Positions 2,904 through 40,294 of a stretch of 64,000 bases of DNA are shown here, in pieces. The notes beneath the pieces are model-generated. The model made no database searches and was not told where the DNA came from. It was given only the letters and a program-made list of their open reading frames with translations. The DNA is from Firmicutes bacterium HGW-Firmicutes-16 (GTDB taxonomy: Bacteria; Bacillota; Clostridia; Oscillospirales; Oscillospiraceae), in the NCBI GenBank assembly GCA_002841545.1, contig PGZZ01000010.1, forward strand, positions 1-64,000, in the 5' to 3' direction. The position numbers and the translations under genes are program-made. Position 1 is the first letter of the stretch, and every line of letters begins with the position of its first letter.

Positions 2904-4486
2904 AAAGAACCCTTTTTTATGGCGGCATATTTCATTCAGGTGTCAGTGAGGATGACACTTTCCGCTTTCTGGAAGTCACGGATGGGACGATTACAGGTAT
3001 ATTTCAGGAAAAGCCTGCGGACGTTAGATATAAGAATGAGGTTTCTCTGGGCGGAAAACATGTCTATCCCTGCCTGATTGACGCGCATGTTCACATGCTC
3101 TTTTCCGTAGTAGTCATGGCCATGGGCTTCAATGTCTGCGAAATCACGCAGGATGGTGTCGAGCCGCACAATTTGGCCGGAGTGGAAAAGAAAATTCGGG
3201 ATTATGCGGCGAGGCAGCCCAAGAACGCTGTCATCGCCGCCAACAACTATATCCTCACCGCAGTGGACGAGAGGCGTCTTCCCACTAAGGACGAATTGGA
3301 CGAATGGGCCGGCGGACGACCCATTGTAATATACAACATCGACGGCCACTGTAGTGCTCTTTCCACGAAAATGCTCTTAAAGCTAGAAATCGAACCTACG
3401 GGACACAACGGTATTTTATCCGGTGCGGCCCATGAACGTGTGCAAGGTCGGTTGACGGACATTATCGGCGCAGCTATCACGCTACCTTTACTGGCAAAAG
3501 GCTGTGCCAATTTTCAGAATGCCTGTGCTAAATACGGCATCAGTGTCGTCGGAGCGCTCGAAGGCAACGGCGACTCTCCAAAGGATGCTACGACGGCTCT
3601 CATCGTGAAGCTGGCCAGGCACTTCGATGTGGGCGTCCGTTTCTATTTTCAGTATTTCGATCTGGGAAAAACCGAAAAATTTGCGAAATATCAGAAGCAC
3701 CTACGGGTTGGCGGCTGTGGCGATTGGGAAATGGATGGAGCCACCGGCTCCCATTCCGCTGCCTTTCATGTTCCGTTCAAGGACACCGGCACGATTGCGC
3801 CCTGCTACTATGAACAAGACTTTGTGGATCGCGTTGTGAAGGAGGCCGAAGAGAAGGGTTACCAAATCGCAAGCCACGCTATCGGTGAAGCAGCTATCGA
3901 GCGCATCATTGCAGCTCTGAATAAAACGACTTCCGGGCGGCTGCACCGTATCGAACACTGTGAGTTCCACAATGATAAGTCGCTGGAAGAGCTGAAAAAG
4001 CTTCGTTATGCTGTCATGATGCAGCCGGGCTATGCCTGGATCGATAAGCGCTATCTGAACACTTACACTCAGTTTCTGCCTCAGGAGATCGTTAACCGTC
4101 TGCGGTTTAAAACCCTTTACGATGCGGGCATCTGTATTTGCGGCTCCAGTGACAGTCCTGTGCAGGACATGGATCCATGGCTGCAGATGCTTGGCATGGT
4201 AGATTTCTATAATCCGGAGGAGTCCATCACCCCCTTTGAGGCTTTTCGCTGTTATACGATCAATCCTGCCAGAGCCATTCTGGAAGAGGACGAACGCGGC
4301 ACGCTGGAAGTCGGCAAAGTGGCTGATTTCTTCACTGCAGACGAAGATCTTTTTGCTGTACATCCGAAAGACATCGTGTCCTTCCGGCCGCAGTGTACCT
4401 ATTACGGCGGACGGCCCTACCGCAAGAAAAAGGGGACTAGTGCTGAATTGCTTTGGTCGATGTTGAAAAGAGCCAAACCTGTTTGA
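2900..4486 (+). CDS. Amidohydrolase-family (metal-dependent TIM-barrel) hydrolase
   Basis: 528 aa. Has the HxH motif (CLIDAHVHM) and a distal HxxE/D signature typical of the amidohydrolase-3 superfamily. Translationally coupled to the upstream permease (ATGA overlap). Confidence 0.75.
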   Translation: MKRTLFYGGIFHSGVSEDDTFRFLEVTDGTITGIFQEKPADVRYKNEVSLGGKHVYPCLIDAHVHMLFSVVVMAMGFNVCEITQDGVEPHNLAGVEKKIRDYAARQPKNAVIAANNYILTAVDERRLPTKDELDEWAGGRPIVIYNIDGHCSALSTKMLLKLEIEPTGHNGILSGAAHERVQGRLTDIIGAAITLPLLAKGCANFQNACAKYGISVVGALEGNGDSPKDATTALIVKLARHFDVGVRFYFQYFDLGKTEKFAKYQKHLRVGGCGDWEMDGATGSHSAAFHVPFKDTGTIAPCYYEQDFVDRVVKEAEEKGYQIASHAIGEAAIERIIAALNKTTSGRLHRIEHCEFHNDKSLEELKKLRYAVMMQPGYAWIDKRYLNTYTQFLPQEIVNRLRFKTLYDAGICICGSSDSPVQDMDPWLQMLGMVDFYNPEESITPFEAFRCYTINPARAILEEDERGTLEVGKVADFFTADEDLFAVHPKDIVSFRPQCTYYGGRPYRKKKGTSAELLWSMLKRAKPV

Positions 4487-5722: not shown

Positions 5723-5935
5723 TTGGTACCCCCTGTTTGGTAATGACTAAATTACGTAATCTATATTCTTTCATAGCAACGAGAAAACTTATACGCATTC
5801 AATGCGCTAAATTGAGAAGCCGCCATGGGCAAAGTTGAAGAAAGCTCGGCTTTTGAATCTCGCAGAACTTTCTTCTTAGAGCTGTTTTAAATTATCAATT
5901 TTGACGCAAATAAATTTGTATATGTCTATCCGTAC

Positions 5936-6048
5936 TATCTTTTGGCCTTCTTTGCTGAGACAGTTTCAATCACAGCTACCGGCTGCTCGGTTACTTTCTC
6001 AATCTTTTTCTTCTTTTTCATTTGCTTGTTTGGATTCTTATCTCCCAT
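5936..6048 (-). CDS. Candidate 37-aa lysine-rich small protein (MGDKNPNKQMKKKKKIEKVTEQPVAVIETVSAKKAKR)
   Basis: ATG preceded by GGTGA. Highly basic peptide lying in an otherwise long AT-rich intergenic region. Not in the ORF track because it is under 60 aa. Confidence 0.2.
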
Positions 6049-6318
6049 GTTGTTTCACCGCCTTATACTTTTATTAAGTATTATTTGCTACTAATGTATA
6101 ATTTATACAGTTGATTCTATTAAAAAAAGCCACATTAATAAAAGTGACTTTAAGTAGGGCTATCCATTTTGCTGTTAGCACTCTTCACTGCTGAGTGCTA
6201 ATTCTAGTATACCACAAGTTTTCGTAAAGTCAAATTTACCTTATATTATTCGCAATACTGATTGAATAATAACTTGAAAATTTGCAGACAGTATAATAAA
6301 AAAATAGGAGGCGGTCTT

Positions 6319-6549
6319 ATGAAAACAAATCCTGACAACCGCAAAGATAATGTCGAAAATATTCAGAAAAACATCAATATGACTATTCATAACATGGAAT
6401 TGGCAGATGAAATGATCGCGAAAACTGACAATAAAAAAACAAAAGAAGAGCTTGGCGCAAAGAATGAGAGGCGTGAAGACGCTTTGGAAGGAATGCGTAA
6501 AGAAATTAAGGATGAGGCTAACGCCAGAGACAAAAACAATAGAAATTAA
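6319..6549 (+). CDS. tlp: Small acid-soluble spore protein Tlp (thioredoxin-like protein) homolog
   Basis: 76-aa product. The pattern PDNRKDNVENIQ...KNERREDALEGMRKEIKDEANARDKN matches the B. subtilis Tlp pattern DDRSDNVEKLQ...NREQSIQAFRSEIKDE. Strong RBS AGGAGG 7 nt upstream of ATG 6319. Confidence 0.7.
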   Translation: MKTNPDNRKDNVENIQKNINMTIHNMELADEMIAKTDNKKTKEELGAKNERREDALEGMRKEIKDEANARDKNNRN

Positions 6550-6570
6550 AGTAATGAAGCCTAAATTGAT

Positions 6571-6612
6571 AAATACCACAAGATGGTTGAGTATCTTGTG
6601 GTATTTATTATA
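6571..6612 (+). terminator. Intrinsic terminator after tlp
   Basis: 13-14-bp perfect stem aaataccacaagat/atcttgtggtattt followed by a T-rich tract. Confidence 0.7.
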
Positions 6613-6776
6613 ATTACACAGTTTTTTGTCGCAGTATACTCATCAATAATGAGCGCAAATCAAACCTTTTTCTGCCTTACGTAGACTCTGTACAAATATC
6701 TGATAAATGATATAATATCTGCATTGCAAATACTGCACATACACCTACACTGTCGGTGGGACATATTGAGGTTAAA

Positions 6777-7604
6777 ATGGAAAAATATCAGGAAATCGAA
6801 AGAAGCATCATAAAAAAGTACCGCAAAGAGATATGGAACAGATTTATAGACGCGGTAGTCCAGTATCAGCTCGTTCAGGAAGGCGACAACATAGCCGTCT
6901 GCATTTCCGGCGGCAAGGACTCCATGCTGATGGCAAAGTGCATGCAAGAGCTCCAAAGACATGGAAAACACAAAATCGGACTTGAATTTCTTATAATGGA
7001 TCCGGGCTATAACCCAATGAATAGGCAGAAAATAATCGACAATGCGAAGCTTATGAACGTACCTATAAAAATGTTCGAAACCGATATTTTCGATATTGTT
7101 GCCGGTACGGACAGGTCCCCCTGCTATCTGTGCGCCAGAATGCGTAGAGGATATCTGTATAGTCATGCTAAAGAACTCGGATGTAATAAAATCGCGCTTG
7201 GACATCATTTCGACGATGTAATCGAAACCATTTTAATGAGTATGTTCTACGGAGCGGAGTATAAATCCATGATGCCGAAGCTCCACAGTACAAACTTTGA
7301 GGGAATGGAGCTTATCCGCCCCATGTATATGGTCAGGGAAGAGGATGTTCTCAAATGGAAAAGATACAATGAGCTGGACTTCATCCAATGCGCCTGCCGC
7401 TTTACCGAAAACTGCGCGCTGGACGAAAACGCAGGCGTTTCCAAAAGGCTGGAAATGAAGGCCCTGATAAAAAATCTGCGGCAGACCAGCCCAGGCATAG
7501 ATCAGAACATTTTTAACAGCGCGCAAAATGTCAATCTGAATACTGTAATCGCGTATAGAGACAAAACCGGTAAACATAGTTTTCTGGATACTTATAACGA
7601 TTAG
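6777..7604 (+). CDS. ttcA: PP-loop ATP pyrophosphatase, tRNA 2-thiocytidine synthetase TtcA-like
   Basis: SGGKDS PP-loop motif plus two CxxC motifs (CYLCARM, CACRF), typical of TtcA-family tRNA thiolation enzymes. The start was placed at ATG 6777, which has a GAGGT RBS. The ORF-track start is an upstream GTG. Confidence 0.7.
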   Translation: MEKYQEIERSIIKKYRKEIWNRFIDAVVQYQLVQEGDNIAVCISGGKDSMLMAKCMQELQRHGKHKIGLEFLIMDPGYNPMNRQKIIDNAKLMNVPIKMFETDIFDIVAGTDRSPCYLCARMRRGYLYSHAKELGCNKIALGHHFDDVIETILMSMFYGAEYKSMMPKLHSTNFEGMELIRPMYMVREEDVLKWKRYNELDFIQCACRFTENCALDENAGVSKRLEMKALIKNLRQTSPGIDQNIFNSAQNVNLNTVIAYRDKTGKHSFLDTYND

Positions 7605-7630
7605 AAGGACTTCTTTTCTTGCATATAAAA

Positions 7631-7670
7631 CGCCTGCAGCAATTTCATTCGCCGCAGGCGCTATTTTTAT
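7631..7670 (+). terminator. Intrinsic terminator
   Basis: Stem cgcctgc/gcaggcg followed by ctattttta. Confidence 0.5.
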
Positions 7671-7807
7671 ACTGATTTGTCCATTTATAGTCTGTTTTAC
7701 CATATTTGCGTCTGCCTTTTAAAGGTTCCTGGCATATCCATATTTTTTTATCTGCCTTAGCTGATTAATACATAATACATGCAAAAACTAATGCCGGAGG
7801 TGTTCAT

Positions 7808-8440
7808 ATGAAACACATGAGAAAATTTAAAATGCTGATAACCTGTATCCTTGCTTCAGCATTGTTATTATTCCCCATTCAGGCATTTGCACAGAGCGGT
7901 ACGCATACGGTCGCGCCGGGGGACAGCATGTGGAAGATTGCCGTCAGATATCAGATCGGCGTGAGTGAACTGATTCAGGCAAATCCGCAAATAAGCAACC
8001 CCTCGCAAATTTATCCGGGGCAGAAAATTAACATTCCGAGTATAGATGACGTGAAATCTCTGGAACAAAAGGTTATCGATTTGGTTAATCAGCAGAGAGC
8101 CAATAATGGGCTGCCGGCGCTGAAAGCCAACTGGGAAATTTGCCGCGTGGCGCGCTATAAGTCACAGGATATGATAAACAAGGGCTATTTTGCCCATCAG
8201 TCTCCTACCTATGGTTCACCATTCAACATGATGGAGAACTTTGGGATAAAGTTTTCGGCTGCGGGAGAAAACATCGCCTATGGACAGCGGACTCCTCAAG
8301 AGGTTATGACCACATGGATGAATTCTCCGGGCCATCGAAGCAATATATTAAATGCGACCTATAACCAAATAGGTGTCGGTGTTGCAAAGACTTCCAGCGG
8401 CACTTTCTATTGGACGCAGATGTTTATCAAATATCCTTAA
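7808..8440 (+). CDS. Secreted LysM-domain plus CAP/SCP (YkwD-like) domain protein
   Basis: Signal peptide. LysM motif HTVAPGDSMWKIAVRYQIGVSELIQANP. C-terminal CAP domain motifs (GENIAYGQ, WMNSPGHRSNIL). Confidence 0.8.
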   Translation: MKHMRKFKMLITCILASALLLFPIQAFAQSGTHTVAPGDSMWKIAVRYQIGVSELIQANPQISNPSQIYPGQKINIPSIDDVKSLEQKVIDLVNQQRANNGLPALKANWEICRVARYKSQDMINKGYFAHQSPTYGSPFNMMENFGIKFSAAGENIAYGQRTPQEVMTTWMNSPGHRSNILNATYNQIGVGVAKTSSGTFYWTQMFIKYP

Positions 8441-8470
8441 TAGGTGAACGGAAACAATATTTCGGCGACT

Positions 8471-8511
8471 AAAAACGCCTCAGAGAAAATTAATCTCTGA
8501 GGCGTTTTTGC
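8471..8511 (+). terminator. Rho-independent terminator
   Basis: 15-bp stem aaaaacgcctcagag/ctctgaggcgttttt. Confidence 0.8.
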
Positions 8512-8543
8512 TAATGTTTGATAAAAATATTGTTTGCAAAAAT

Positions 8544-8969
8544 ATGGACGAAATGAAAAGCAGTTTGGAGAACTGTTTAAAAGAAGACAGCACATTTTTG
8601 AATGCCTAAGTCGAACTATCAAAAATACTACGTCGGCAGGGAGACATAGCAAATGCTGAAAAATACTGCGAGGGGGTTCTCGGTAAAAATAAACATTATA
8701 GCGAAGCTCTGCGCTGTTTAGCGGTAATCAGGCTATTGAACGGCGACAAAGAAGATGGGCTGGATTTAGCATATCAGGCCTTTGAGCAGGACCCAGATGG
8801 GCTTTTTATACGGGACACTTATATCGTAGCACTACACGAAAACGATAAGAGCGACGAGACAGATGCTCAAATTAAAGAGTACCTTGCAAAAGGCAACACA
8901 CTTGACGAAGATACTCAAGCGTACTTAGACGGTAAAATATCTCTCCGCGATTTATACATCGACGAATAG
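8544..8969 (+). pseudogene. TPR-like small protein interrupted by an in-frame TAA stop at 8607-8609
   Basis: ATG 8544 (MDEMKSSLENCLKEDSTFLNA) and the downstream TPR-like ORF (VELSKILRRQGDIANAEKYCEGVL...LYIDE) are in the same frame, separated only by TAA. The ORF track reports just the 3' part, from an internal TTG at 8736. Confidence 0.4.
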
Positions 8970-8983
8970 GGAGGAGCAATATT

Positions 8984-9519
8984 ATGATTTTTCCTATACC
9001 GGGCATATTAATTCTGCAATAACTTTCCCGGGCGTAATTGTTCACGAGCTTGCACATCAACTATTCTGTCGCCTAATGCGTGTACCGGTTTATGAGGTGA
9101 AGTATTTTCAATTGAAAAATCCCTGCGGTTATGTAATACATGAGGCGACTGAAAGCCCCTTAAAAACCTTTTTTATTTCAATCGGACCGTTTTTAGTTAA
9201 CACCATTGTCGGAATGATAGTTATTGCACCAGCGGCAATTGAATTGATAAAATTTAAAGATTATTCAAATCCACTGAACTTAGTCTTAGGCTGGCTTGGT
9301 TTTTCAATTTTGATGCATGCTTTCCCGAGTTCGGGCGACGCAAAAGTGTTGGTTAAAGACATATTAAAAAACAAGAATGTAAATATATTTGTAAGAATAA
9401 TAATTGCGCCAGTAATAGGTCTTATTTACGTTGGTGCTTTCGGTTCAATAGTGTGGCTTGACTTTTTATATGCTTTATTAATTGCCATGGTAATCCCTAA
9501 TCTGCTTTTATTGTTTTAG
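8984..9519 (+). pseudogene. Membrane protein with an N-terminal HExxH (zincin-like, DUF3267-like) motif, apparently frameshifted at a T5 homopolymer (8988-8992)
   Basis: Strong RBS AGGGAGGAG lies 7 nt upstream of ATG 8984, which hits a stop after 12 codons. One extra T in the T-run would give MIFSYTGHINSAITFPGVIVHELAHQLFCRLMRVPVYEV..., continuous with the track ORF 9076..9519 (three or four TM helices). Confidence 0.5.
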
Positions 9520-9647
9520 AAAGAAGATTGAAAACCGCAATTTTTCAGGCTTTATTTTATAATTTGTCAGAACCGGTGTAAAATTGAGATACAATAAAAA
9601 GGGCTGTACAGCATCGTTGCTGTACAGCCCTTTTCGTTGGCGCTTAA

Positions 9648-17048: not shown

Positions 17049-18533
17049 TCACAGGTTCCCCTGAAACACAGTATCCGTATCCTTGCATAAGTACTGAACG
17101 GCCTTGCGCCCTGTTTCAAGAGCTACCGGCAGTCCGCCGGGACTTGTCAAGCGCTGTCCGGCGAAGTAGACGTTCTGAATGCTTTCGGGTACAGACGGAT
17201 AGTTCGCCTGTTTTTCTCCCTTGCCCATTAAGGTCATCCACGAGCCCTTGTAGGAATTCAGATAGCGCTCATAGGTAAGAGGTGTAGCTACGTCCCATAC
17301 AGCGATTTTTCCGGCAGTCTGTGGATATTTCTTTGCAAGAATTTCAATAAAGGCTTCCGCAAGCTTTTCTTTCTCAGTCTGATATGTACCGTTTTCTTTG
17401 CAGCTTTTCCAGAAATCGTAGCTGTCCCCGCCGACGATAGACGTGACGGCGGTGCAGCCCTCCGGAGAGTAACCCTTATAGCCTGCATAGTTGCAGAGCC
17501 CCACATACGGCTGCTGTATACTGCCGCACACCAGAGGCTCATCTGGTACAAAGGCTATTCTTTCCGGCAAATCAGACAAATCAGCCTCTACGCCCAGGCA
17601 GATAAATGTGTCGAGCATCGGCTTAGTGTTTTCGCGCATTTTTTCCGCCCACGGTTCATGGATAGGAGCCTCGAACAATTTGTCGATTGCTACAAGAGTG
17701 TCCTGCGTAACGATTACCGCATCTGCTGGAATGAGCTCCCCGTTAATAATAACGCCATTGGCTACGCCGTTTTTGACAGATACTTTGCTTACGGGTTTAC
17801 CGTATTGTATAAAACCGCCGAGCTTTTCAAGATTCTTTGCCATACGGTTTGCCATGGCGAGTGAACCGCCCAAGGGATAGCCGCCATCACCGGATGCAAG
17901 CGTTGCAAGAGTGAATATTAGGCCTGTTGCGGCATATTCGGGGCCTATGATATTCTGAATGAAATGCCTTAAAATCGGACTTTTAAACCGTTCGGCATAT
18001 TCCTTCACCGACTGTTTTCCGTAATAAGACATGCGGGGAAATGCGGGCAGCATTTTTATAATTGACGATATGGGCATGGAGGCTTTGTTCTTTACCTTTA
18101 CGCACTTGATATCCATTACGGGCATAGCAACCTTTGAAAATTTCTTAATATCCTTGCACAAGCTGTCGATTTCCTTTTTATCCTCTGGCGAAAGTTCAAG
18201 GAAATGCTTGTGGAGCTTCTCTACATCACGGTAGAGATACGCCGTTTTGCCGTCAAGGTCAAAGGCCAGAAACGGGTCGACGTTATAAACGGGAACACTG
18301 TCGTCCAATGCGCCAACTTCATGCCACAGCTTATTCAAAGGGACTTCTTTAGATGACCCTGTCAACCAGTGCATACCGCCCTCGAATAAGTAGCCTTTTC
18401 GACGCCAGCTTGTGGAGGCACCTCCGGGTATAGTGTGACTTTCATAAATTGTCACGTCAAAGCCGCTCTGACGGGCATAAATTCCTGCGGTAAGTCCGGC
18501 GATTCCTGCGCCGACAACAACAATTTTTTTCAT
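17049..18533 (-). CDS. FAD-dependent oxidoreductase, phytoene-desaturase-like family
   Basis: Rossmann dinucleotide motif MKKIVVVGAGIAGLTAG...YESH..PGG at the N-terminus. 494 aa. Confidence 0.75.
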   Translation of the reverse strand: MKKIVVVGAGIAGLTAGIYARQSGFDVTIYESHTIPGGASTSWRRKGYLFEGGMHWLTGSSKEVPLNKLWHEVGALDDSVPVYNVDPFLAFDLDGKTAYLYRDVEKLHKHFLELSPEDKKEIDSLCKDIKKFSKVAMPVMDIKCVKVKNKASMPISSIIKMLPAFPRMSYYGKQSVKEYAERFKSPILRHFIQNIIGPEYAATGLIFTLATLASGDGGYPLGGSLAMANRMAKNLEKLGGFIQYGKPVSKVSVKNGVANGVIINGELIPADAVIVTQDTLVAIDKLFEAPIHEPWAEKMRENTKPMLDTFICLGVEADLSDLPERIAFVPDEPLVCGSIQQPYVGLCNYAGYKGYSPEGCTAVTSIVGGDSYDFWKSCKENGTYQTEKEKLAEAFIEILAKKYPQTAGKIAVWDVATPLTYERYLNSYKGSWMTLMGKGEKQANYPSVPESIQNVYFAGQRLTSPGGLPVALETGRKAVQYLCKDTDTVFQGNL

Positions 18534-19162
18534 TATAATTTCCTCCTTATAATATCAACAACCCAATCACTTTCGGGGTAAGGCATATCCGGTTGCATAG
18601 CCATTTGCTCTGCAATTCCCTGAATCGCGCACCAATATGCAATTGCAAGCGCGTCTGGATTGCCTTCCCGAATGCTGCCGTTTTCCTGACCTTTTTGAAT
18701 AAGCAGGGAAGTCGGCGTATAAATATCAAAGCCTAGAAGCATTTCCTTTACGTTCTGCGGTGCTGCATCGTTAAAAGCTGCCTGACTCATCAAAACAAAC
18801 ATTTTTGCAAAAAAAGGTTCAGTTTGCAGATAGTAAAATAGCTGCTTTGCAGTATCCTCAAAGAACTCCAGCGGTTCTTTATCGGAGGGAGCAACGGTTT
18901 GCATGGGACCCATAATCCCAAGCTCTATTAACTCTTCGTATAGGCTTTCTTTAGATTTAAAATAGTGAAATAGAAGTCCCACACTCATTCCGACTCTCTC
19001 GGCAATATCGCTGATTTTTGTGGCGGCGTAGCCCTTGCGGATAAACAGGTCAAGGGCGGCTTCAAGAATTTCTTCACGGCGCTTTTGTTTTTGATCATCA
19101 CGAATACCCAAATTGTTGAACCTCGATTCAATGAACGCATATTCAATATATACTCGATGCAA
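18533..19162 (-). CDS. TetR/AcrR-family transcriptional regulator
   Basis: TetR HTH KGYAATKISDIAERVGMSVGLLFHYFKSKE. Its stop overlaps the downstream oxidoreductase start. Confidence 0.7.
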   Translation of the reverse strand: MHRVYIEYAFIESRFNNLGIRDDQKQKRREEILEAALDLFIRKGYAATKISDIAERVGMSVGLLFHYFKSKESLYEELIELGIMGPMQTVAPSDKEPLEFFEDTAKQLFYYLQTEPFFAKMFVLMSQAAFNDAAPQNVKEMLLGFDIYTPTSLLIQKGQENGSIREGNPDALAIAYWCAIQGIAEQMAMQPDMPYPESDWVVDIIRRKL

Positions 19163-19220: not shown

Positions 19221-19272
19221 ACACAAAATTCAACGCCCTTGCGCCAGTCGAATATGACGCAAGGGCGTTGAA
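19221..19272 (-). terminator. Rho-independent terminator (minus strand) ending the symporter operon
   Basis: 15-bp perfect inverted repeat ttcaacgcccttgcg/cgcaagggcgttgaa, followed on the minus strand by UUUUGUGU. Confidence 0.75.
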
Positions 19273-19305: not shown

Positions 19306-20919
19306 TCAGTCTGAGACCGCAAGTGGGACTACTTCATCAGCCTCTTTGGCGTTTCCGATTATCGCCCACGCAATAAGCGCGGCTATTATGGATAACGGCA
19401 GGGAAACAACAATTGCATCCACCATTGAGAGAGTGCTGAGCGGTGTATCCCTCACGATTGACGTAGTACCGAAGATTAGTTTGCATATCTGCAGGCTACC
19501 GGAGGTTTTCTCCTGAACAAAGAACAGCCAGAGAAGACTTGTTGCGGAACCTGTGAGTATGCTTGCAATAGCTGCCTTCTTCGGAAATTTCTTAATATAG
19601 AGCGCAGCAATATAGGTCGGCAGAAAAGCAGCTGCGCACAGACCGTAAAACATAGAAGTGCCGATTGCAATTATCGCCATGCTGACGTCCAGCTTGCTGG
19701 AAAGCCAGGTAAGCAGCATGCTGATTATAAGCCCGATCATCATTGCAATACGGGTCAAAGGAATAGTGTCAGCTTTGAGCTTAAGCGATTGCTTCAAAAA
19801 GTCGCTTCCGAGAGCCGTTCCCATTGTATGGATAAGGGCGCTAAGTGTGGAAATACCCGCCGCCATGAGCACGACGAGGAAAACTCCGCCGAACCACTCG
19901 GGCAGGAAGGTTTTGATGAAGATGGGTATGATGCCGTCGTTTGAACCGGCGGCGATGATCGAAACCTGTCCAGTAGTGTTATAGAAAGCAACGTTGGATA
20001 GAGCCCCGACCGTAAAAGCTACGCCTGTCATGAATAGGATGAAGATACCGCCCGAGAGGACTGCGCGATTTAGTTCCCGGCCGCTTTTAACCGTCATAAA
20101 CTTCACCGAGAGCTGAGGCTGAGCGAGAACGCCGATTCCAACGCCCGCCACAAGAGTTGTTACTATGTTCCACCAGACCGGCGTGCCGCCTTTTGGCATT
20201 GTGGTCCAGCCTGTGAAGCCGCCTTTTATGAGCTTTTCTACCTGTTCCGTTATGCCCGGTTTAGTTATAAGCTCTGAAAGAGCAGTATGAGCGCGTGTCA
20301 CGCCGCCGAGCATCGAATAGGTATAAATGATGAGAAAGGCCATGCCTGCAAACATTATTGCACCTTGGAAAGCATCCGCATACATGATGCCTTTAAGCCC
20401 GCCCATTATAACGAATACCGCGACAAGAACTCCAACTATTATAAGTACAACATCAAAGCCGGCTCCGGTATAATTCGATACGAAATCAACGATTCCCTTT
20501 AGCACCGCCGAAGCATAGACCGGCATGAACAAAAAGATAAGGATTCCGGCATAGCCCTGTATAAATTTTGAATTAAAGCGGCGTGCAAAGAGCTCCGGCA
20601 TTGTATTTGAACCCAGTTTGTAACCGATTTCTCTCGTTTTCTTGCCGAATACAACGAAAGCGATTAAAACTCCGACGAAAATATTGAATACAGTAAGCCA
20701 TAACAGCCCCATTCCGAACTGCCCTGCAGCGCCTCCAAAACCGACGATGGCTGAGGTACTGATAAAGGTGGCACCGTAGGACAGAGCCATAACAATTGGA
20801 TGCATGTCCCTTCCGGCCAGAAGATAATCGCTGGTGGTCTTTGTTTTCTTGAAGCCTATGTAGGAGAATAACGACAATACCAAAACATAAACAATCAGGC
20901 TTACTATAATATAAATCAT
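19306..20919 (-). CDS. Sodium:solute symporter (SSS) family transporter
   Basis: 537-aa protein with 13 or more TM helices and PutP/PanF-like SSS topology. Translationally coupled to the upstream small accessory gene (ATGA overlap). Confidence 0.85.
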   Translation of the reverse strand: MIYIIVSLIVYVLVLSLFSYIGFKKTKTTSDYLLAGRDMHPIVMALSYGATFISTSAIVGFGGAAGQFGMGLLWLTVFNIFVGVLIAFVVFGKKTREIGYKLGSNTMPELFARRFNSKFIQGYAGILIFLFMPVYASAVLKGIVDFVSNYTGAGFDVVLIIVGVLVAVFVIMGGLKGIMYADAFQGAIMFAGMAFLIIYTYSMLGGVTRAHTALSELITKPGITEQVEKLIKGGFTGWTTMPKGGTPVWWNIVTTLVAGVGIGVLAQPQLSVKFMTVKSGRELNRAVLSGGIFILFMTGVAFTVGALSNVAFYNTTGQVSIIAAGSNDGIIPIFIKTFLPEWFGGVFLVVLMAAGISTLSALIHTMGTALGSDFLKQSLKLKADTIPLTRIAMMIGLIISMLLTWLSSKLDVSMAIIAIGTSMFYGLCAAAFLPTYIAALYIKKFPKKAAIASILTGSATSLLWLFFVQEKTSGSLQICKLIFGTTSIVRDTPLSTLSMVDAIVVSLPLSIIAALIAWAIIGNAKEADEVVPLAVSD

Positions 20920-21050
20920 TTATTGTCATCCTCCTTTTCCTTAGTGGCGTCCTTGTTCCAATTGAGAACTCCGTAAACGACACAGAAAATTGCGCCGCCG
21001 GCAGATAGTAGATAGGCAAGACAAATTGATACATCTGTCAATCCCAACAT
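20916..21050 (-). CDS. Symporter small accessory membrane protein (DUF997/YhdT-like)
   Basis: 44 aa (MLGLTDVSICLAYLLSAGGAIFCVVYGVLNWNKDATKEKEDDNK) with a single TM helix. RBS GGGAGG. Such a small membrane protein overlapping the start of an SSS gene is the canonical arrangement. Confidence 0.55.
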   Translation of the reverse strand: MLGLTDVSICLAYLLSAGGAIFCVVYGVLNWNKDATKEKEDDNK

Positions 21051-21154
21051 GTTTTTTCCTCCCTTTTCTTTTTTAGTTATTGTTGAAATGCTACGGTGTG
21101 GAAGGAGCGTGAGGGCCGTGGTTTTCGAAATTTTGCCTAAGGCCTGAGAAATAC

Positions 21155-21440
21155 AAAAAAGCCTTCCATCCCTATAAAAATAGGGACGAAAGGCTCTATA
21201 AGCATTCCGCGATACCACCCTGGTTCACATATACCAAAAGATATAATGCGCGCTCTTTATCGGATACTGATCATATCCTATCCCTTTAACGGAGGACTCC
21301 GCACCCACCTACTAATTTTTCAGAGGGCGCGCTCGGAAGGGAACTTCGGCGGATTTATCTTTAGGTCTGCTTTCAGTCAACGACAGACCCTCCCTGATAA
21401 GACAGCACAGCGTACTTTCCTTCTTCATCGCGTTTTAGTG
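21155..21440 (-). promoter_or_regulatory. T-box riboswitch leader (minus strand) with terminator/antiterminator, upstream of the symporter operon
   Basis: The minus strand reads AACCAGGGUGGUAUCGCGG, which matches 13 of 14 positions of the T-box consensus AGGGUGGNACCGCG. It is followed by a 15-bp terminator stem (agcctttcgtcccta/tagggatggaaggct) plus U6. An F-box-like CCGUUA and a GCGAUGAAGAAGG K-turn-like start lie upstream. Confidence 0.65.
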
Positions 21441-21453
21441 TTAAATTAATCGA

Positions 21454-21483
21454 AGTATACAGGATTAACCAGTGCGTTGTCAA
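21454..21483 (-). promoter_or_regulatory. Sigma-A-type promoter for the T-box leader (minus strand)
   Basis: Minus strand TTGACA, 18-nt spacer, extended -10 TGtATACT. Confidence 0.5.
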
Positions 21484-35576: not shown

Positions 35577-36800
35577 TTATGCCTGAGGAAGTTCCTTGAC
35601 CACGTCCACAAGCTTGGTTGTGACCGTAGTACCTTCAGAGGTGAAGGATATGATTGATGCGCCCTTGGTCGGAGTGCCGGAAGCATCAAGAGAGAAGGTG
35701 CCGGTTACGCCTGTATAGACTGCGGAGGTATCGGCCAGAGCGTCACGTACAGCAGTGGCATCAGTGGAGGCGGCCTTCTCGATAGCCTGCTTATACATAT
35801 AAACTGCGTCATATGCAAGAGCGGAGATGGCGTTCGGGGTGGCGCCGAATTTTGCTTCATAGGCTTTTACGAAAGACTGAACCTTATCAGAGGTGTCAGC
35901 TGGATCGTAGTGGTTGGTCCAATAGACGTCATTGAAGACGCTTAGGTCAGCGCCGTCTACGACATAGTCGGGAGTGCTGTCGTAGCCGTCAGCGCCCATG
36001 ATGATGCCCTTATAGCCGGCAGCACGAGCCTGGGTGACGATATAGGGTCCGATAACATCATAGTAATAGGGAGCATAGACGAACTCAACGCCGGCCTTTA
36101 CCATGGATGCAAACTGGTTGGTGTAATCCTGAACGTCCAAAGATGCGGTTGACTCAACGGCCTTAACTGTTACGCCGTATTTTTCGCAGGCGGTGTTGAA
36201 GGAGTCATACAGGCCCTTGGAATAAGTATCAGCTGCGCAGTACACAACGCCGACTTCGGTGTATCCGGACTGCTTTGCATAGGCAGCAGCGATAGCGCCC
36301 TGGAAGCTGTCAGCATAGCAGGCACGGAATACATAGTCATCCACAGTTGTGATGGAGTCTGCGGTGGCGGACGGTGTCAGAAGACAAACCTGTTCTTCGT
36401 TAGCTGCATCGGTGATAGCGGAGGTACAGCCGCTCGTTACGGAGCCGATGATGAGGCCGATGCCCTGAGAAACAAGGGAGTTGAATGCGTTGAGGCACTC
36501 AGTCGGGTCAAACTGATCGTCAGCGTTTACTATCTTGACCTGACTTCCGTTGATGCCGCCTGCGGCGTTGATTTCTTCAACAGCCAAATCGACAGCGGTT
36601 GTTACGGCGGAGCCGTAAGCTGCGAGTGAACCGGTGTTAGGGGAAATGGTGCCGATGGTGATTTCTCCGCCTGCGGCTGGTGTTTCAGCTGCATCGGATG
36701 CTGCGGGTGTGGCACTAGCTGCTGAGCCGGAGCCTCCGCAAGCTGCGAGGCTTAAGCACATGCAAGCTGCGAGCAAGAGACATGCAAGTTTCTTTTTCAT
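35577..36800 (-). CDS. livJ: Branched-chain amino-acid ABC transporter substrate-binding lipoprotein, LivJ/LivK-like
   Basis: Lipobox LAAC plus a type-I PBP (Leu/Ile/Val-binding) fold. RBS AGGAGGAAG. Confidence 0.8.
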   Translation of the reverse strand: MKKKLACLLLAACMCLSLAACGGSGSAASATPAASDAAETPAAGGEITIGTISPNTGSLAAYGSAVTTAVDLAVEEINAAGGINGSQVKIVNADDQFDPTECLNAFNSLVSQGIGLIIGSVTSGCTSAITDAANEEQVCLLTPSATADSITTVDDYVFRACYADSFQGAIAAAYAKQSGYTEVGVVYCAADTYSKGLYDSFNTACEKYGVTVKAVESTASLDVQDYTNQFASMVKAGVEFVYAPYYYDVIGPYIVTQARAAGYKGIIMGADGYDSTPDYVVDGADLSVFNDVYWTNHYDPADTSDKVQSFVKAYEAKFGATPNAISALAYDAVYMYKQAIEKAASTDATAVRDALADTSAVYTGVTGTFSLDASGTPTKGASIISFTSEGTTVTTKLVDVVKELPQA

Positions 36801-37929: not shown

Positions 37930-38192
37930 ACTAAAACTCAAACCAAAGGCGTTGACGGAGAGAGTAAGTTTCAATCGAACGTTCCAGCGAGCCGGGAATG
38001 GTGCAAGCCCGGTACAAGTAGTTTGAAACCGAAAATCACTCCTGAGCTGCGGACCGAACGGGAAACCAAGTAGGCTCCGACGGATTCCCCCGTCATAGGG
38101 AAGGCATATGATTGTACGCTTCAAACGGGTGGTATAGCGAAAGAGCTTTTTAAAAGGCTTTCGTCCCTTTTGTGGAACGAAGGTCTTTTTTT
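37930..38192 (+). promoter_or_regulatory. T-box riboswitch leader, probable isoleucine (AUC) specifier, with an intrinsic terminator
   Basis: T-box motif AAACGGGUGGUAUAGCG at 38123-38139. Antiterminator GGG[UGGUAUA]GCGAAAG...CUUUCGUCCC. Terminator stem aggctttcgtccc/ggaacgaaggtct plus U7 at 38154-38192. By analogy with glyQS (AAGAA-GGC-A-CUUC), the Stem-I elements GGAG-AGAGUAAG ... AAA-AUC-A-CUCC place the specifier at AUC, 38035-38037. Confidence 0.65.
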
Positions 38193-38220: not shown

Positions 38221-38808
38221 ATGATGGCTACAAATGAGTTAGTCGAGATTCGCTGGCACGGTCGAGGGGGACAGGGAGCAAAAACAGCCTGTCTGCTGCT
38301 CGCGGAGGTGGCGGCGCTGGAAGGGAAATTCGTACAGGGTTTTCCGGAATACGGACCGGAGCGCATGGGCGCACCGATAACGGCGTATAACCGCATATGC
38401 GAAAAACGGTGTACCGTCCATTCAAACATCTACTATCCGAACTATGTGGTCGTTGTGGACGAGAGTCTGCTGGACAGTGTCAATGTCACTGCGGGACTAA
38501 AAGAGGGCGGAGCTGTGATTATCAACACGCCTAGCTCTCCCGAGGAAATACGTCCGAAGCTGAGTGGCTGGACCGGCAGGGTCAGCACAATTGACGCCCG
38601 CCGTATTTCGGAAGAGATTCTGGGAAAGAACTTCCCGAATACTCCGATGCTGGCTGCCGTCGTCAAGGTGAGCGGCGTTTTGGACGTTGAGCGTTTTCTA
38701 GCTGATATTGAAGATTCCTTCAGACATAAATTTGCGTCCAAGCCTCAGGTCATAGAGGGAAACATGGCGACACTCAAGAAATCCTTAGAGGAGGTGCAGG
38801 AAGGATGA
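38221..38808 (+). CDS. 2-oxoacid:ferredoxin oxidoreductase gamma subunit (Por/Vor family)
   Basis: N-terminus EIRWHGRGGQGAKTA is the gamma-subunit signature. RBS GGAGG. The track ORF begins inside the upstream terminator; ATG 38221 was chosen. Confidence 0.8.
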   Translation: MMATNELVEIRWHGRGGQGAKTACLLLAEVAALEGKFVQGFPEYGPERMGAPITAYNRICEKRCTVHSNIYYPNYVVVVDESLLDSVNVTAGLKEGGAVIINTPSSPEEIRPKLSGWTGRVSTIDARRISEEILGKNFPNTPMLAAVVKVSGVLDVERFLADIEDSFRHKFASKPQVIEGNMATLKKSLEEVQEG

Positions 38809-39113
38809 TCCATGCAAAGGATATTAACGAACGTACCCCGTGGGAGGAAATGACCCCGGGCGGTGAGATATATGAGCCGGGCACCGCAAGGGATTTTGAT
38901 ACAGGTACATGGAGAACAGACACACCCGTTTTCATTGCCGAAGCCTGCAAGCACTGTATGCTCTGTGTCCCGTTCTGTCCGGACAGCGCAATCCCCGTAA
39001 AAAACGGAAAGCGTCTTGAATTTGACTTTATGCACTGCAAGGGCTGTGGTATCTGCGTAACTGTCTGCCCCTTCGCCGCGATAAAAATGGTGTCCGGAGG
39101 TGATGCAGAATGA
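38805..39113 (+). CDS. 2-oxoacid:ferredoxin oxidoreductase delta subunit (2x[4Fe-4S] ferredoxin-like)
   Basis: Two CxxCxxCxxxCP motifs (CKHCMLCVPFCP, CKGCGICVTVCP). Overlaps the flanking genes. Confidence 0.8.
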   Translation: MIHAKDINERTPWEEMTPGGEIYEPGTARDFDTGTWRTDTPVFIAEACKHCMLCVPFCPDSAIPVKNGKRLEFDFMHCKGCGICVTVCPFAAIKMVSGGDAE

Positions 39114-40294
39114 GTATTTGCTTTTCCGGTAACGAGGCTGTAGCTTACGCTATGAAGCAGATAAATCCCGACGTTATGGGCGCGTTCCCGATAACTCCGT
39201 CCACGGAGATCCCCGAGTATTTCGCACAGTTTGTTGCGAACGGCGAGGTCAACACCGAGTTCGTGACCGTAGAGTCCGAGCACAGCTCAATGTCCGTGTG
39301 CATTGCGGCTGAAGCGGCTGGAGCCAGAAGCGTCTGCGCGACCTCCTCCTGCGGACTTGCGCTGATGTACGAAATGCTCTACGTCGCCGCGTCCGACCGC
39401 CTTCCAATAACGCTCGCCTGCGTAAACCGTGCGCTTTCGGGACCAATCAATATTAATAACGACCACTCGGATTCGATGGGCGCCCGCGATACCGGCTGGA
39501 TACAAATCTATGCCGAAAACAATCAGGAGGCCTACGATAATTTCATCATGTCCGTGCCTATAGGCGAGAGCGTGCGTCTGCCCGTTATGGCCTGTATGGA
39601 CGGCTTTATAACGAGCCACGCCGTTGAGAATATCGAGCTTTTAGAAACGGACTCCGTGCACGGATTCGTAGGGGCTTATGAGCCCGAAAACTATTTGCTG
39701 AAAAAGGAAAATCCTCTGGCTATAGGGCCATATGATATAAGCGCGTATTACATGGAGCACAAGGTACAGCAAGCCGAAGCTATGAAGAGCGCGAAGCAGC
39801 GCATACTCGAGGTGGGGACGGCGTTTGAGAAGCTTTCTGGTCGCAGTTACGGACTTTTTGAGGAATACCGTATGGAGGATGCCGAGCTTGCGATAGTCCT
39901 TATCGGCTCAAGTGCAGGAACGGCCAAGGAAGCGGTTGAAAATCTGCGCGAACAAGGTGTCAAGGCGGGACTTGTAAAGATAAGAGTGTTCCGTCCCTTC
40001 CCGAGTGAGGAGCTTGCGAAGGCTCTCGCCAATACCAAGGCAGTAGCAGTTTTGGATAAATCCGAGGGCTTTTCGGCAAACGGGGGACCTGTATTTGCCG
40101 AGACCCGCAGCGCCTTGTACGATTTGAAGGAACGTCCGTATCTTATTAATATCGTCTACGGTCTGGGCGGTCGTGACTTTAAAACGGAGGATGCCGAAAA
40201 GGTGTTCGCAAGACTTGCGAGAATCGCGGCTACGGGAGAGACCGGACTCGTATACACCCACATGGGACAAAGAACAAGGGAGGCGATAGTATGA
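39110..40294 (+). CDS. 2-oxoacid:ferredoxin oxidoreductase alpha subunit
   Basis: 394-aa Por/Vor alpha-subunit architecture. Overlapping start and stop. Confidence 0.8.
   Translation: MSICFSGNEAVAYAMKQINPDVMGAFPITPSTEIPEYFAQFVANGEVNTEFVTVESEHSSMSVCIAAEAAGARSVCATSSCGLALMYEMLYVAASDRLPITLACVNRALSGPININNDHSDSMGARDTGWIQIYAENNQEAYDNFIMSVPIGESVRLPVMACMDGFITSHAVENIELLETDSVHGFVGAYEPENYLLKKENPLAIGPYDISAYYMEHKVQQAEAMKSAKQRILEVGTAFEKLSGRSYGLFEEYRMEDAELAIVLIGSSAGTAKEAVENLREQGVKAGLVKIRVFRPFPSEELAKALANTKAVAVLDKSEGFSANGGPVFAETRSALYDLKERPYLINIVYGLGGRDFKTEDAEKVFARLARIAATGETGLVYTHMGQRTREAIV

Follow-up and report, generated by a model that had tools for sequence, protein, structure and literature searches.

A conserved T-box leader, most likely sensing tRNA-Phe, precedes a sodium:solute symporter operon with a candidate aryl-acid substrate

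RESULTS

A small membrane protein and an SSS carrier form an operon behind a T-box leader

The window (the whole stretch of 64,000 nucleotides that was analysed) carries on its minus strand genes for a 44-amino-acid membrane protein and a sodium:solute symporter (SSS), preceded by a promoter and a T-box leader (Table 1). The carrier matched the SSS family (PF00474 / TIGR00813) over the full PF00474 profile, positions 1-406, with 151.5 bits compared to a gathering score of 22.8, and more than 6,000 homologues were found. The first-pass annotation had set it apart from the PutP and PanF paradigms of the family, and the profile scores agreed. PutP (TIGR02121) was the best bacterial profile match, at 145.8 bits against an equivalog cut-off of 515.5; PanF (TIGR02119) scored 127.8 bits against 328, and ActP (NF006903) 24.9 bits against 750. 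The nearest solved structures were those of SMVT, NIS and SMCT1, all of which are carboxylate or anion carriers.

The small protein had been annotated as DUF997-like. This identity was rejected, because a Pfam search returned neither DUF997 nor any other family, even at E<=10; instead, the protein matched the full 33-position profile of NF045580 (56.6 bits; cut-off, 35), and its orthologues have the Pfam domain PF28215 (Symport_access). Its reading frame is preceded by a GGGAGG ribosome-binding site, and its stop codon overlaps the SSS start by 4 nt (ATGA). A small gene upstream of the carrier was seen in every locus inspected, the partner measuring 40 to 60 amino acids. Small partners of SSS carriers are known from PanF, which is paired with YhdT (DUF997), and from ActP, which is paired with YjcH (DUF485). 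The present pair resembles these in that a tiny membrane protein precedes the carrier and is translationally coupled to it, but the partner is an NF045580/PF28215 protein with a conserved NWNK motif and, judged by inspection, a single predicted helix; the carrier lies far below the PanF and ActP cut-offs.

The two-gene operon likely ends at the hairpin behind the SSS stop codon. The gene that follows (TetR, 18533-19162) has an apparent TTGACA-type promoter of its own, read from the sequence by eye, and the same gene order was found in an 89%-identical relative (L161). At the orthologous loci, TTGACA and a -10-like box occupied the position equivalent to that of the leader promoter.

Table 1. 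Features of the leader and the operon (positions within the window)
Feature	Position	Strand	Remarks
Sigma-70-type promoter of the leader transcript	21454..21483	-	TTGACA-18 nt-TATACT, 11/12 positions match (promoter scan)
T-box leader	21179..21437	-	RF00230; Stem I, Stem II, IIA/B pseudoknot region, extra hairpin, Stem III, antiterminator
Stem I	21329..21432	-	K-turn GAUGA.../...GAGC, specifier loop with S-turn AGUA/GAA, distal tRNA-elbow platform (covariance-model alignment)
Proposed specifier UUC (Phe)	21341..21343	-	alternative frame GUU at 21342-21344
Extra hairpin GGAUAU-loop-GUAUCC	21262..21278	-	between F-box and Stem III; insertion relative to the Rfam model
T-box sequence AGGGUGGUAUCGCG	21221..21208	-	13/14 positions as in the consensus, one mismatch
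Antiterminator helix A1/A2 with 7-nt bulge	21181..21221	-	AGGG[UGGUAUC]GCGGAA...UUCGUCCCU
Intrinsic terminator	21152..21197	-	18-pair stem (21197..21158, counting G-U), 4-nt loop, U run (terminator scan)
44-aa single-pass membrane protein	20916..21050	-	"symporter small accessory protein", NCBIfam NF045580
537-aa sodium:solute symporter (SSS)	19306..20919	-	PF00474, E=4e-44; uncharacterised subfamily
Hairpin 3' of the SSS stop codon	19231..19270	-	terminator-like site in scan

Anatomy of the leader

An Rfam covariance-model scan identified the leader as a T-box (RF00230) with 101.4 bits, compared to a gathering score of 93 (E=3e-21; full model, positions 1-219). The leader, its F-box CCGUUA, its Stem I start GCGAUGAAGAAGGAAAGUA and a 14-mer with 13 consensus positions (AGGGUGGUAUCGCG) had all been proposed in the first-pass annotation and were confirmed. 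In the covariance-model alignment, the Stem I K-turn, the specifier-loop S-turn with the codon and the distal platform had high posterior probability, and the F-box, the Stem II S-turn (GAA/AGUA) and the K-turn start also aligned to the model. The T-box sequence contains a UGGU bulge, found in all leaders compared, which would pair with the ACCA 3' end of a tRNA whose discriminator is A73.

Between the antiterminator and the terminator the strand UUCGUCCCU is held in common, which makes the two structures mutually exclusive. The antiterminator folded with -12.2 kcal/mol when the 3' arm of the terminator was left out, and the terminator with a ΔG of -30.9 kcal/mol (z, -5.3); the terminator arms covaried across the leaders. 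A terminator followed by a U run had been annotated as well, with a stem of 15 bp; both are present, while the stem is longer (Table 1). By its anatomy, the leader is a genuine T-box of the transcription-terminating type ahead of the small-protein and SSS-carrier operon. The additional hairpin had unchanged arms in 12/12 aligned leaders (alignment A2, columns 209-236) and was also seen in the leaders of L161 and L163-L165. It was absent from the leader of a pheS gene (L028), and it appears to be specific to the leaders of this group.

The leader had been labelled the second T-box of this DNA, correctly, since another lies at 37943..38171 on the plus strand (87.5 bits, below the gathering score). 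That T-box, with an Ile specifier, apparently precedes a VOR/POR-type 2-oxoacid:ferredoxin oxidoreductase. No tRNA genes were found within the 64-kb window.

The leader is conserved with the operon

The scan and the specifier-loop alignment, extended to orthologues, showed the same leader before the orthologous gene pair in 18 distinct loci: the window and 17 others (L002, L003, L006, L007, L058, L063, L161, L081, L082, L092, L109, L005, L001 and L163-L166). Every locus with at least 65% identity had it, with one exception; in the close orthologue L004, nothing of the leader is left. The orthologous leaders scored between 99.6 and 123.8 bits, apart from two with 88.2 and 79.8 bits, the latter broken by a run of N. 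Compensatory changes were observed in 31 of the 61 predicted consensus pairs. At the base of Stem I, for example, A2 columns 14/103 held AU in six sequences, GC in five and GU in one, and columns 15/102 held AU in seven and GC in five. While the stems covaried, GAAGUUCCCU was invariant in all 18 leaders; the loop motifs were invariant too, and the functional motifs stayed the same across carriers of 48 to 100% identity. Invariant motifs combined with compensatory stem changes across lineages are the signature of purifying selection.

It is therefore hardly credible that the T-box is decaying or has lost its function, with the operon being effectively constitutive or otherwise regulated. The pyrimidine after the codon, the single mismatch in the 14-mer and the leaderless L004 could be taken as signs of decay, but they are set against full-length matches at or above the gathering score in many lineages, the compensatory substitutions and the motif invariance.

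UUC is the favoured reading of the specifier

The sequence of the specifier region is GAA-G-UUC-C-CUUC, and the first-pass annotation had left the choice between GUU (Val) and UUC (Phe) undecided, pointing to the C that takes the place of the usual purine after the codon. This C (position 21340) is real: in either frame, the base 3' of the codon was C in all 18 leaders, contrary to the purine requirement. In T-boxes with a Stem II the base after the codon is partly unstacked (PMC7583486), and this may relax the requirement.

Several observations argue for UUC. The Rfam alignment placed UUC in the codon columns. The "+0" frame of TBDB, which takes nucleotides 2-4 of the bulge counted from its 3' end, is UUC here, and according to TBDB, C is preferred in the third codon position, a preference that the Stem II S-turn enforces structurally; this leader has such an S-turn. 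UUC makes up 99% of Phe specifiers, whereas GUU accounts for 8% of Val specifiers, and U-ending specifiers rarely have a matching tRNA (TBDB). The register was calibrated on three further leaders. The pheS leader of an Oscillospiraceae MAG (L028) has GAAG-UUC-G in the same columns (GAAGUUCG) and thus the heptamer GAAGUUC in common with the present leader; the register is the same in the other T-box of the window, which has GAA-A-AUC-A (Ile); and the third was an Ala T-box (GCC-G) in L003. A search for more T-boxes in L007, L067, L085 and L157 yielded nothing new. We therefore read the specifier as UUC and consider tRNA-Phe the tRNA most likely to be sensed, the frame being the one that these comparisons favour.

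The GUU frame would mean that tRNA-Val is sensed and that the carrier imports valine or branched-chain amino acids, or else isobutyrate as a precursor of Val. It draws on an invariant G-C pair: RNAalifold paired the G of A2 column 18 with column 99, the second of the C residues 3' of UU, which could extend the base stem to five pairs. With this extra pair the "+0" frame would shift to GUU, and GUU-C would form the glyQS-like arrangement "GAA-NNN-N". Covariation cannot decide the frame, because the 18/99 pair never varies. The UGGU bulge fits an A73 discriminator, which is common to tRNA-Phe and tRNA-Val, and therefore does not discriminate between them. Against GUU stand its rarity among Val specifiers, the scarcity of tRNAs matching U-ending specifiers, the codon columns of the covariance model and the heptamer in common with the pheS leader; its remaining support lies in the gene neighbourhoods described below.

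A third possibility is that the invariant GUUCCC is read in several frames (GUU/Val, UUC/Phe, UCC/Ser), the leader responding to at least two tRNAs. Six consecutive invariant bases exceed the need of one codon, and in TBDB two or more frames are admissible for thousands of leaders, one alternative-frame case having been studied experimentally. However, the S-turn, the codon and the closing pairs explain the invariance equally well, the G73 of tRNA-Ser would pair with UGGU by wobble only, and it is hard to see why a transporter should answer to amino acids that are unrelated. Nothing here requires such a mechanism, and we consider it very unlikely.

Homologous carriers are linked to aryl-acid genes

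Among 160 homologous loci, 28 contained a gene for a PaaK-like phenylacetate-CoA ligase, mostly adjacent and co-directional, and 26 one for an ACT_8 protein; IorB and IorA, of indolepyruvate:ferredoxin oxidoreductase (IOR), were encoded in 12 and 7 loci, respectively. Profile scores of these neighbours were 560-588 bits for TIGR02155, 649 bits for IOR_alpha and 228 bits for IorB. This context spans at least nine phyla, methanogens included, with representatives in Bacteroidota, Bacillota, Spirochaetota, Fibrobacterota, Planctomycetota, Actinomycetota, Verrucomicrobiota, a Dissulfurispiraceae MAG and Methanobacteriaceae (L071). The PaaK-like, ACT and IOR genes were the sole neighbours of the carrier kept across phyla. 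Genes for MetF, DapB, a GTPase, radical SAM, MatE-like and ferredoxin-like proteins and a pyridine-nucleotide oxidoreductase were discarded as context, each occurring in few loci and without a common theme.

A branched-chain context was seen in six loci, all from spirochaetes, in which an acetolactate synthase gene adjoins the carrier. It lends weak support to the GUU frame, for which the Ile T-box before a VOR/POR-type enzyme can also be cited, as it would make salvage of branched-chain precursors plausible in this organism. However, the acetolactate synthase neighbour is confined to spirochaetes, in the loci inspected it is followed not by an ilvN-like gene but, as the next conserved one, by a GTPase gene, and the only context found across phyla, PaaK and IOR, is aromatic. 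Sensing of tRNA-Val is therefore improbable. Of the branched-chain or aromatic substrate suggested in the first-pass annotation, the aromatic half is the one favoured by the codon evidence, and the branched-chain half has become less likely.

The T-box-bearing operons themselves stand apart from these clusters. A tblastn search of the 64-kb window for PaaK, ACT, IorA, IorB, acetolactate synthase and the cluster-3 TetR gave only a weak TetR match, elsewhere in the window; with no PaaK or Ior match, aryl-acid genes are not local. Within 10 kb on either side of five T-box-clade orthologues, no conserved neighbours were found, and the contexts were unrelated. Because the operon is free-standing in this clade, its link to aryl acids rests on homologues of 48 to 60% identity, and at such distances changes of substrate among SSS carriers can occur. 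The nearest relatives without a T-box (56-60% identity) lie within PaaK-ACT-SSS operons, and in L003, whose carrier is about 77-79% identical to that of the window and has the T-box, iorAB is located 2 kb away. Gracilibacter homologues of 48% identity still have a UUC T-box, so that T-box control spans a wider range of identity than the PaaK-linked members do.

In L008, an orthologue without a T-box, a suggestive Phe-rich leader peptide (MTYAAAIFTARFFSF...) followed by a terminator was noticed. As a general feature, such a peptide was rejected, as it did not recur in L004, L009-L016, L086 or L101.

DISCUSSION

The probable phenylalanine specifier in Clostridia and the PaaK/ACT/IOR clusters elsewhere are two independent lines that converge on phenylalanine-related metabolism, and the carrier probably imports phenylalanine or its precursor phenylacetate. 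We propose that a tRNA-Phe-specific attenuating T-box controls the 44-aa subunit and an SSS symporter, presumably coupled to Na+, whose favoured substrate is phenylacetate, related aryl acids or arylpyruvates; we give this proposal an even chance of being right. Transcription would begin at the TTGACA/TATACT promoter, and UUC in the Stem I specifier loop would be shown to the GAA anticodon of tRNA-Phe. The ACCA end of uncharged tRNA would pair with the UGGU bulge and stabilise the antiterminator, letting RNA polymerase read into the operon; with charged tRNA, the 18-pair terminator would form. As charging of tRNA-Phe falls, the carrier would appear and, working presumably inward, import something that restores the Phe pool. 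Phenylacetate could do so by way of phenylacetate-CoA ligase, reductive carboxylation by IOR and transamination.

The first-pass annotation had taken the T-box as a sign of an amino-acid substrate. For this carrier, that step is not safe, because the only neighbours conserved across phyla are PaaK-like, ACT and IOR genes, and such a context suits import of an aryl acid as a Phe precursor no less than import of Phe. L-Phe is nevertheless the main alternative to phenylacetate: under the same T-box, the carrier would import L-Phe or aromatic amino acids, feeding fermentation in the PaaK/IOR clusters and protein synthesis in Clostridia. IOR also runs oxidatively on arylpyruvates derived from amino acids, PutP, the best bacterial profile match at 145.8 bits, is an amino-acid carrier, and no aryl-acid genes adjoin the operon in the T-box clade. 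However, a catabolic IOR already yields the CoA thioester, which would make a co-transcribed AMP-forming phenylacetate-CoA ligase unnecessary. The cluster also occurs in Methanobacteriaceae (L071), and methanogens are not known to ferment amino acids. The closest solved homologues, moreover, are carboxylate or anion carriers. We therefore hold import of L-Phe to be rather unlikely, although the catalogued T-box-regulated transporter families were all assigned amino-acid specificities from their T-boxes (PMC2494555).

That catalogue (Wels et al. 2008, PMC2494555) comprises ABC, APC, DAACS, LIVCS, MFS, NhaC and NSS transporters and does not include SSS; one of its examples is an NSS-family carrier of the Bacillus cereus group that has a Phe T-box. 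The present system is like these in its predicted induction by uncharged tRNA and in the use of the specifier to infer the substrate, but here the gene neighbourhood independently points to a precursor acid, not necessarily to an amino acid. Among class I T-boxes (long Stem I plus Stem II, RF00230; e.g., Firmicute pheS and tyrS leaders), the leader is typical in scoring above the gathering score and in the GAAG-UUC that it has in common with a pheS leader. It differs in the C after the codon, the possible extra G-C pair in the base stem and the extra conserved hairpin, and in regulating an SSS carrier with an accessory subunit instead of tRNA synthetase or biosynthetic genes. In our literature search, neither an SSS carrier nor IOR/PaaK nor a 2-oxoacid:ferredoxin oxidoreductase turned up in connection with a T-box.

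A route by which IOR makes aromatic amino acids from aryl acids is documented for Methanococcus maripaludis (Porat et al., as cited in PMC4162585), and synthesis of Phe from phenylacetate in rumen cultures (PMC7356843). Homologues of the carrier lie, in a methanogen too, in iorA-iorB-ACT-paaK clusters, which encode the enzymes of this route, whereas the window itself is without paaK or ior. No transporter has been assigned to the route in the papers examined. On this basis, we tentatively suggest that the SSS carriers associated with Symport_access proteins, a subfamily that counts its members among anaerobic bacteria and methanogens in the thousands, are importers of aryl acids for a PaaK-IOR-aminotransferase route, gated in Clostridia by a tRNA-Phe T-box; this wider claim could well prove wrong. 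Candidate substrates are phenylacetate and possibly also indoleacetate or 4-hydroxyphenylacetate.

An SSS carrier for phenylacetate has a precedent in Pseudomonas putida, whose phenylacetate permease (PhaJ/Ppa) is ActP-like and genetically linked to phenylacetate-CoA ligase. Family and ligase linkage are alike in the two cases, but the carrier studied here is weakly related to the ActP type (24.9 bits). If it does carry phenylacetate, it would represent an independent subfamily, found in anaerobes and linked to anabolic IOR and not to the aerobic paa pathway.

While the riboswitch mechanism is textbook, the leader is of value for what it labels. An SSS subfamily that extends from Bacillota to methanogens gains a directly testable substrate prediction. 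If the substrate is phenylacetate, the carrier would supply the uptake step of an aryl-acid route on which methanogens and anaerobes of the rumen and gut draw, and T-box control would be extended from amino acids to fermentation-acid precursors. Together with the Ile T-box on a VOR/POR-type enzyme, this would hint at a wider theme, in which tRNA charging controls the salvage of fermentation acids by reductive carboxylation. Finally, the constant pyrimidine after the codon and the extra hairpin offer a natural test of the purine-after-codon rule in T-boxes with a Stem II.

A T-box leader precedes the symporter operon

The RNA upstream of the sodium:solute symporter (SSS) operon is a member of the T-box family RF00230, and the hallmarks that the first-pass annotation had listed were all seen in the RF00230 alignment. 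The leader contains the start of the K-turn, GCGAUGAAGAAGGAAAGUA, a specifier loop with an AGUA/GAA S-turn, and a Stem II with a separate GAA/AGUA S-turn. Also aligned were the F-box (CCGUUA), Stem III and the T-box sequence AGGGUGGUAUCGCG (13 of 14 consensus positions). Folding with the 3′ arm of the terminator withheld gave an antiterminator of the classic form with a 7-nt UGGUAUC bulge (-12.2 kcal/mol). The leader had correctly been called the second T-box of the window, as a weaker one is found on the plus strand.

Compared to the RF00230 family, the leader has a pyrimidine as the base that follows the codon, perhaps an additional closing pair and, in common with the other aligned SSS leaders, an added conserved GGAUAU/GUAUCC hairpin between F-box and Stem III. 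The arms of this hairpin were invariant and its loop was variable (approximately 4 to 16 nt) in all aligned SSS leaders. It was also present in L161, an 89% identical relative, and in L163 to L165 (longer loci around close relatives), but it was not found in L166 or in the putative pheS leader of L028. As the stem sequence is invariant and does not covary, the hairpin hints at a sequence-specific contact.

Features of the window and of homologous loci
Feature	Coordinates	Strand	Properties
Promoter TTGACA-18-TATACT	21483..21454	minus	11/12 consensus positions
T-box leader	21437..21179	minus	end-to-end RF00230 match, 101.4 bits (gathering score 93), E=3e-21
Extra hairpin GGAUAU/GUAUCC	21262-21278	minus	insertion relative to Rfam model; columns 209-236 of the 12-leader alignment
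Terminator	21197..21152	minus	18 pairs + U run; dG -30.9 kcal/mol, z -5.3
Small protein ORF	21050..20916	minus	44 aa; GGGAGG ribosome-binding site
SSS carrier	20919..19306	minus	537 aa; start overlapped by stop codon of 44-aa ORF
Hairpin 3′ of carrier	19270..19231	minus	likely operon end
TetR-family gene and overlapping FAD amine-oxidase/phytoene-desaturase-family gene	17049-19162	minus	FAD protein, 494 aa
Branched-chain-type ABC substrate-binding protein	35577-36800	minus	
Other T-box	37943-38171	plus	87.5 bits, below gathering score 93
POR/VOR-type oxidoreductase, four genes	38221-41229	plus	gamma-delta-alpha-beta
L003, Ala-T-box cluster	7263-7042, 5746-6972, 7367-9554	minus	T-box, 96.8 bits
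L008, leader small ORF	3662-3763	plus	MTYAAAIFTARFFSFINGVNKVFLSCYRIYSLI, 5 Phe
L058, second module	~3640-3790		
L063, second module	~3640-3800		

The leader is conserved among close relatives of the carrier

We compared 160 loci homologous to the carrier locus (80 genome, 80 metagenome) and five longer loci around close relatives. A T-box between the promoter and the small-ORF/SSS pair was present at 17 further distinct loci, with scores of 100.5 to 123.8 bits in L002, L003, L006, L007, L058 and L063 and of 79.8 to 113.8 bits in L161, L081, L082, L092, L109, L005 and L001; the leaders of L163 to L166 were recognised at the motif level. Where the carrier was at least 65% identical to that of the window, the leader was found at every locus but one, L004, where the promoter is a plain one without a T-box. 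It was also found at two Gracilibacter loci with a carrier identity of only 48%. In an alignment of 12 leaders, 31 of the 61 consensus pairs showed compensated pairing with changes on both sides; one Stem I pair (columns 14/103), for example, was AU in six leaders, GC in five and GU in one. Because these pairs are maintained through two-sided changes, the sequence comparison indicates that the leader structure is under selection and not due to chance.

Some leaders displayed further elements. In the Gracilibacter MAG loci L058 and L063, the complete T-box and terminator are followed by a second module without its own Stem I or II, which comprises a hairpin resembling Stem III, CGGGUGGUACCGCGGG and another strong terminator, upstream of the same small-ORF/SSS pair; it would be a tandem "discriminator-only" unit. 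L008, a 64% identity orthologue without a T-box, has a Phe-rich small ORF in its leader; after it comes a strong hairpin terminator (CGCCUGUGGU...ACCACAGGCG, then U7). This arrangement could constitute Phe-codon attenuation. It is a single case, and no such ORF was seen in the other T-box-less leaders.

The specifier most probably reads UUC

The first-pass annotation had offered GUU (Val) or UUC (Phe) as the specifier. On its 3′ side, the specifier loop has the sequence GAA-G-U-U-C-C, and the closing stem (CUUC) comes next; GAAGUUCCCU was invariant in 18 of 18 leaders. In the covariance model, the three columns of the codon were occupied by U-U-C at maximal posterior probability. In the same columns, GAAG-UUC-G-CCGG was read from the T-box leader of L028 (an Oscillospiraceae MAG), which precedes a gene whose product starts MLEKLETMRTDG...KLMGKKGKLTEILKELGKL, presumably the N terminus of PheS. 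The other T-box of the window showed GAA-A-AUC-A-CUCC in this register, and an Ala-type T-box of L003 showed GCC-G. The UGGU bulge of the window leader pairs with A73 of tRNA-Phe; this discriminator base is common to tRNA-Phe and tRNA-Val (tRNA-Ser has G73) and fails to separate the two. No tRNA gene was present in the window.

TBDB gives priority to nucleotides 2 to 4 as counted from the 3′ end of the bulge; in the window leader, these are UUC. T-boxes strongly favour C as the third base of the codon, and this is structurally enforced where a Stem II S-turn is present (TBDB), as it is in the window leader. Of all Phe specifiers, 99% are UUC. The codon frame that we infer is UUC, and the specifier most probably designates Phe. 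A Val specifier appears improbable: pairing is possible between an invariant 5′-strand G (column 18, position 21415) and the second C (column 99, position 21340), which would give a 5-pair stem and place GUU in the preferred frame, but GUU makes up only 8% of Val specifiers, and U-ending specifiers rarely have a matching tRNA (TBDB). Covariation does not decide between UUC and GUU, because the bases concerned never vary. Other or multi-frame readings take up the small probability left beside Phe and Val. In either frame, the base after the codon is C instead of the conserved purine. In Stem II-containing T-boxes, this base swings off the codon-anticodon stack (reviewed in PMC7583486), and a pyrimidine may therefore be tolerated.

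The operon encodes an SSS carrier and a small accessory protein

The PF00474 domain spans the full length of the carrier, which scored far below the NCBIfam equivalog cut-offs for PutP (145.8 versus 515.5), PanF (127.8 versus 328) and ActP (24.9 versus 750). Among proteins of solved structure, it is closest to SMVT, NIS and SMCT1, all of which carry carboxylates or anions. The 44-aa protein had been described as DUF997-like; this was not borne out, as no Pfam match was obtained even at E<=10. It belongs to NCBIfam NF045580, "symporter small accessory protein" (56.6 bits; cut-off, 35), and its orthologues are tagged Pfam PF28215 (Symport_access). The operon is directly followed by a gene for a TetR-family regulator, which overlaps with an FAD amine-oxidase-family gene; this pair is also located 3′ of the SSS gene in L161. 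By eye, the TetR gene appears to have its own promoter, and the pair appears to be transcribed separately from the operon.

Gene neighbourhoods point to aryl-acid metabolism

ORFs were called and clustered in the 80 genome loci, and cluster representatives were searched against all 160 loci. The sole functional theme recurring across phyla consisted of a PaaK-like phenylacetate-CoA ligase (28 loci; AMP-binding_C_2; TIGR02155 560 to 588 bits, just under the cut-off of 646), an ACT-pair protein (PF19571; 26 loci) and indolepyruvate:ferredoxin oxidoreductase (IOR; IorB, 228 bits, 12 loci; IorA, TIGR03336, 649 bits, 7 loci). These genes mostly adjoin the carrier directly and in the same direction. 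Two Actinomycetota MAGs, for example, have the order IorA-IorB-ACT-SSS-PaaK-PaaK, Prolixibacteraceae have PaaK-ACT-small-SSS, and a Phycisphaerae MAG has SSS-PaaK-ACT-PaaK-ACT. By their titles, the genome loci concerned belong to Bacteroidota, Bacillota, Spirochaetota, Fibrobacterota, Planctomycetota, Actinomycetota, Verrucomicrobiota, a Dissulfurispiraceae MAG and Methanobacteriaceae. Ranked by identity to the carrier of the window, the first T-box-less relatives with informative context (56 to 60%: L088, L017, L085, L013 and L089) are PaaK-ACT-SSS operons. The window contains no paaK or ior genes. In L003 (carrier approximately 77 to 79% identical, with T-box), iorA-iorB lie 2 kb away. L003 has a second T-box, whose specifier appears to be GCC (Ala) with G as the next base. 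It is flanked by iorA-iorB on one side and by a class I/II aminotransferase gene on the other, in a cluster oriented convergently to the SSS operon.

The remaining recurrent neighbours occurred at few loci each and were mutually unrelated; acetolactate synthase alone bears on function. Six spirochaete loci (L029, L035, L042, L044, L054 and L055) have a TetR-family gene, the small-ORF/SSS pair and then an acetolactate synthase large-subunit gene, without a small-subunit gene beside it. The representative tested (L055) scored 583 bits with TIGR00118 (cut-off, 538). This is a branched-chain context, unlike the PaaK/IOR context elsewhere.

Methanogens are not known to ferment amino acids. As the PaaK/ACT/Ior cluster is present in a methanogen, it would probably run in the anabolic direction, with an acid rather than the amino acid as the likely imported substrate. 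Together, an AMP-forming aryl-acid ligase and IOR make up the pair of enzymes that leads from aryl acids to aromatic amino acids. This aryl-acid route is described for M. maripaludis (cited in PMC4162585), and rumen cultures make Phe from phenylacetate (PMC7356843). We infer the substrate, the Na+ coupling and the role of the small subunit. Based on homologues of 48 to 60% identity, we give about even chances to the import of phenylacetate or another aryl acid. The Phe T-box found ahead of the same carrier family in Clostridia independently points to the supply of phenylalanine. Import of L-Phe itself is less likely; both the gene neighbourhood and the Phe T-box fit it, somewhat less well than an aryl acid.

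Proposed regulation and relation to known T-box transporters

Anatomy and conservation of the RNA were observed directly; for the mechanism, we propose the following. When charging of tRNA-Phe is low, free uncharged tRNA-Phe would dock on Stem I, with its GAA anticodon paired to UUC and its elbow on the distal platform. Its free ACCA end would pair with UGGU and stabilise the antiterminator, allowing RNA polymerase to pass the terminator. The carrier and small subunit would be produced by coupled translation (ATGA overlap), and Na+-driven uptake of a Phe source would follow. Charged tRNA would be unable to stabilise the antiterminator, and the 18-pair terminator would form.

Prediction of transporter substrates from T-box specifiers is established practice; the families covered were ABC, APC, DAACS, LIVCS, MFS, NhaC and NSS, with SSS absent (Wels et al. 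2008, PMC2494555). No publication on a T-box ahead of an SSS carrier, or ahead of IOR/PaaK genes, came up in our literature search. The proposed function constitutes a useful, testable prediction for a large uncharacterised SSS carrier subfamily.

The other T-box of the window, with an Ile specifier (GAA-A-AUC-A), is located directly ahead of the four genes of a 2-oxoacid:ferredoxin oxidoreductase of the POR/VOR type (PorC_KorC, 210 bits; PorD_KorD, 97 bits; the alpha and beta subunits scored under the POR and VOR equivalog cut-offs). This arrangement suggests T-box control of Ile synthesis via reductive carboxylation of 2-methylbutyryl-CoA, on which no literature was found. Just upstream of this T-box, a branched-chain-type ABC substrate-binding protein is encoded on the opposite strand.
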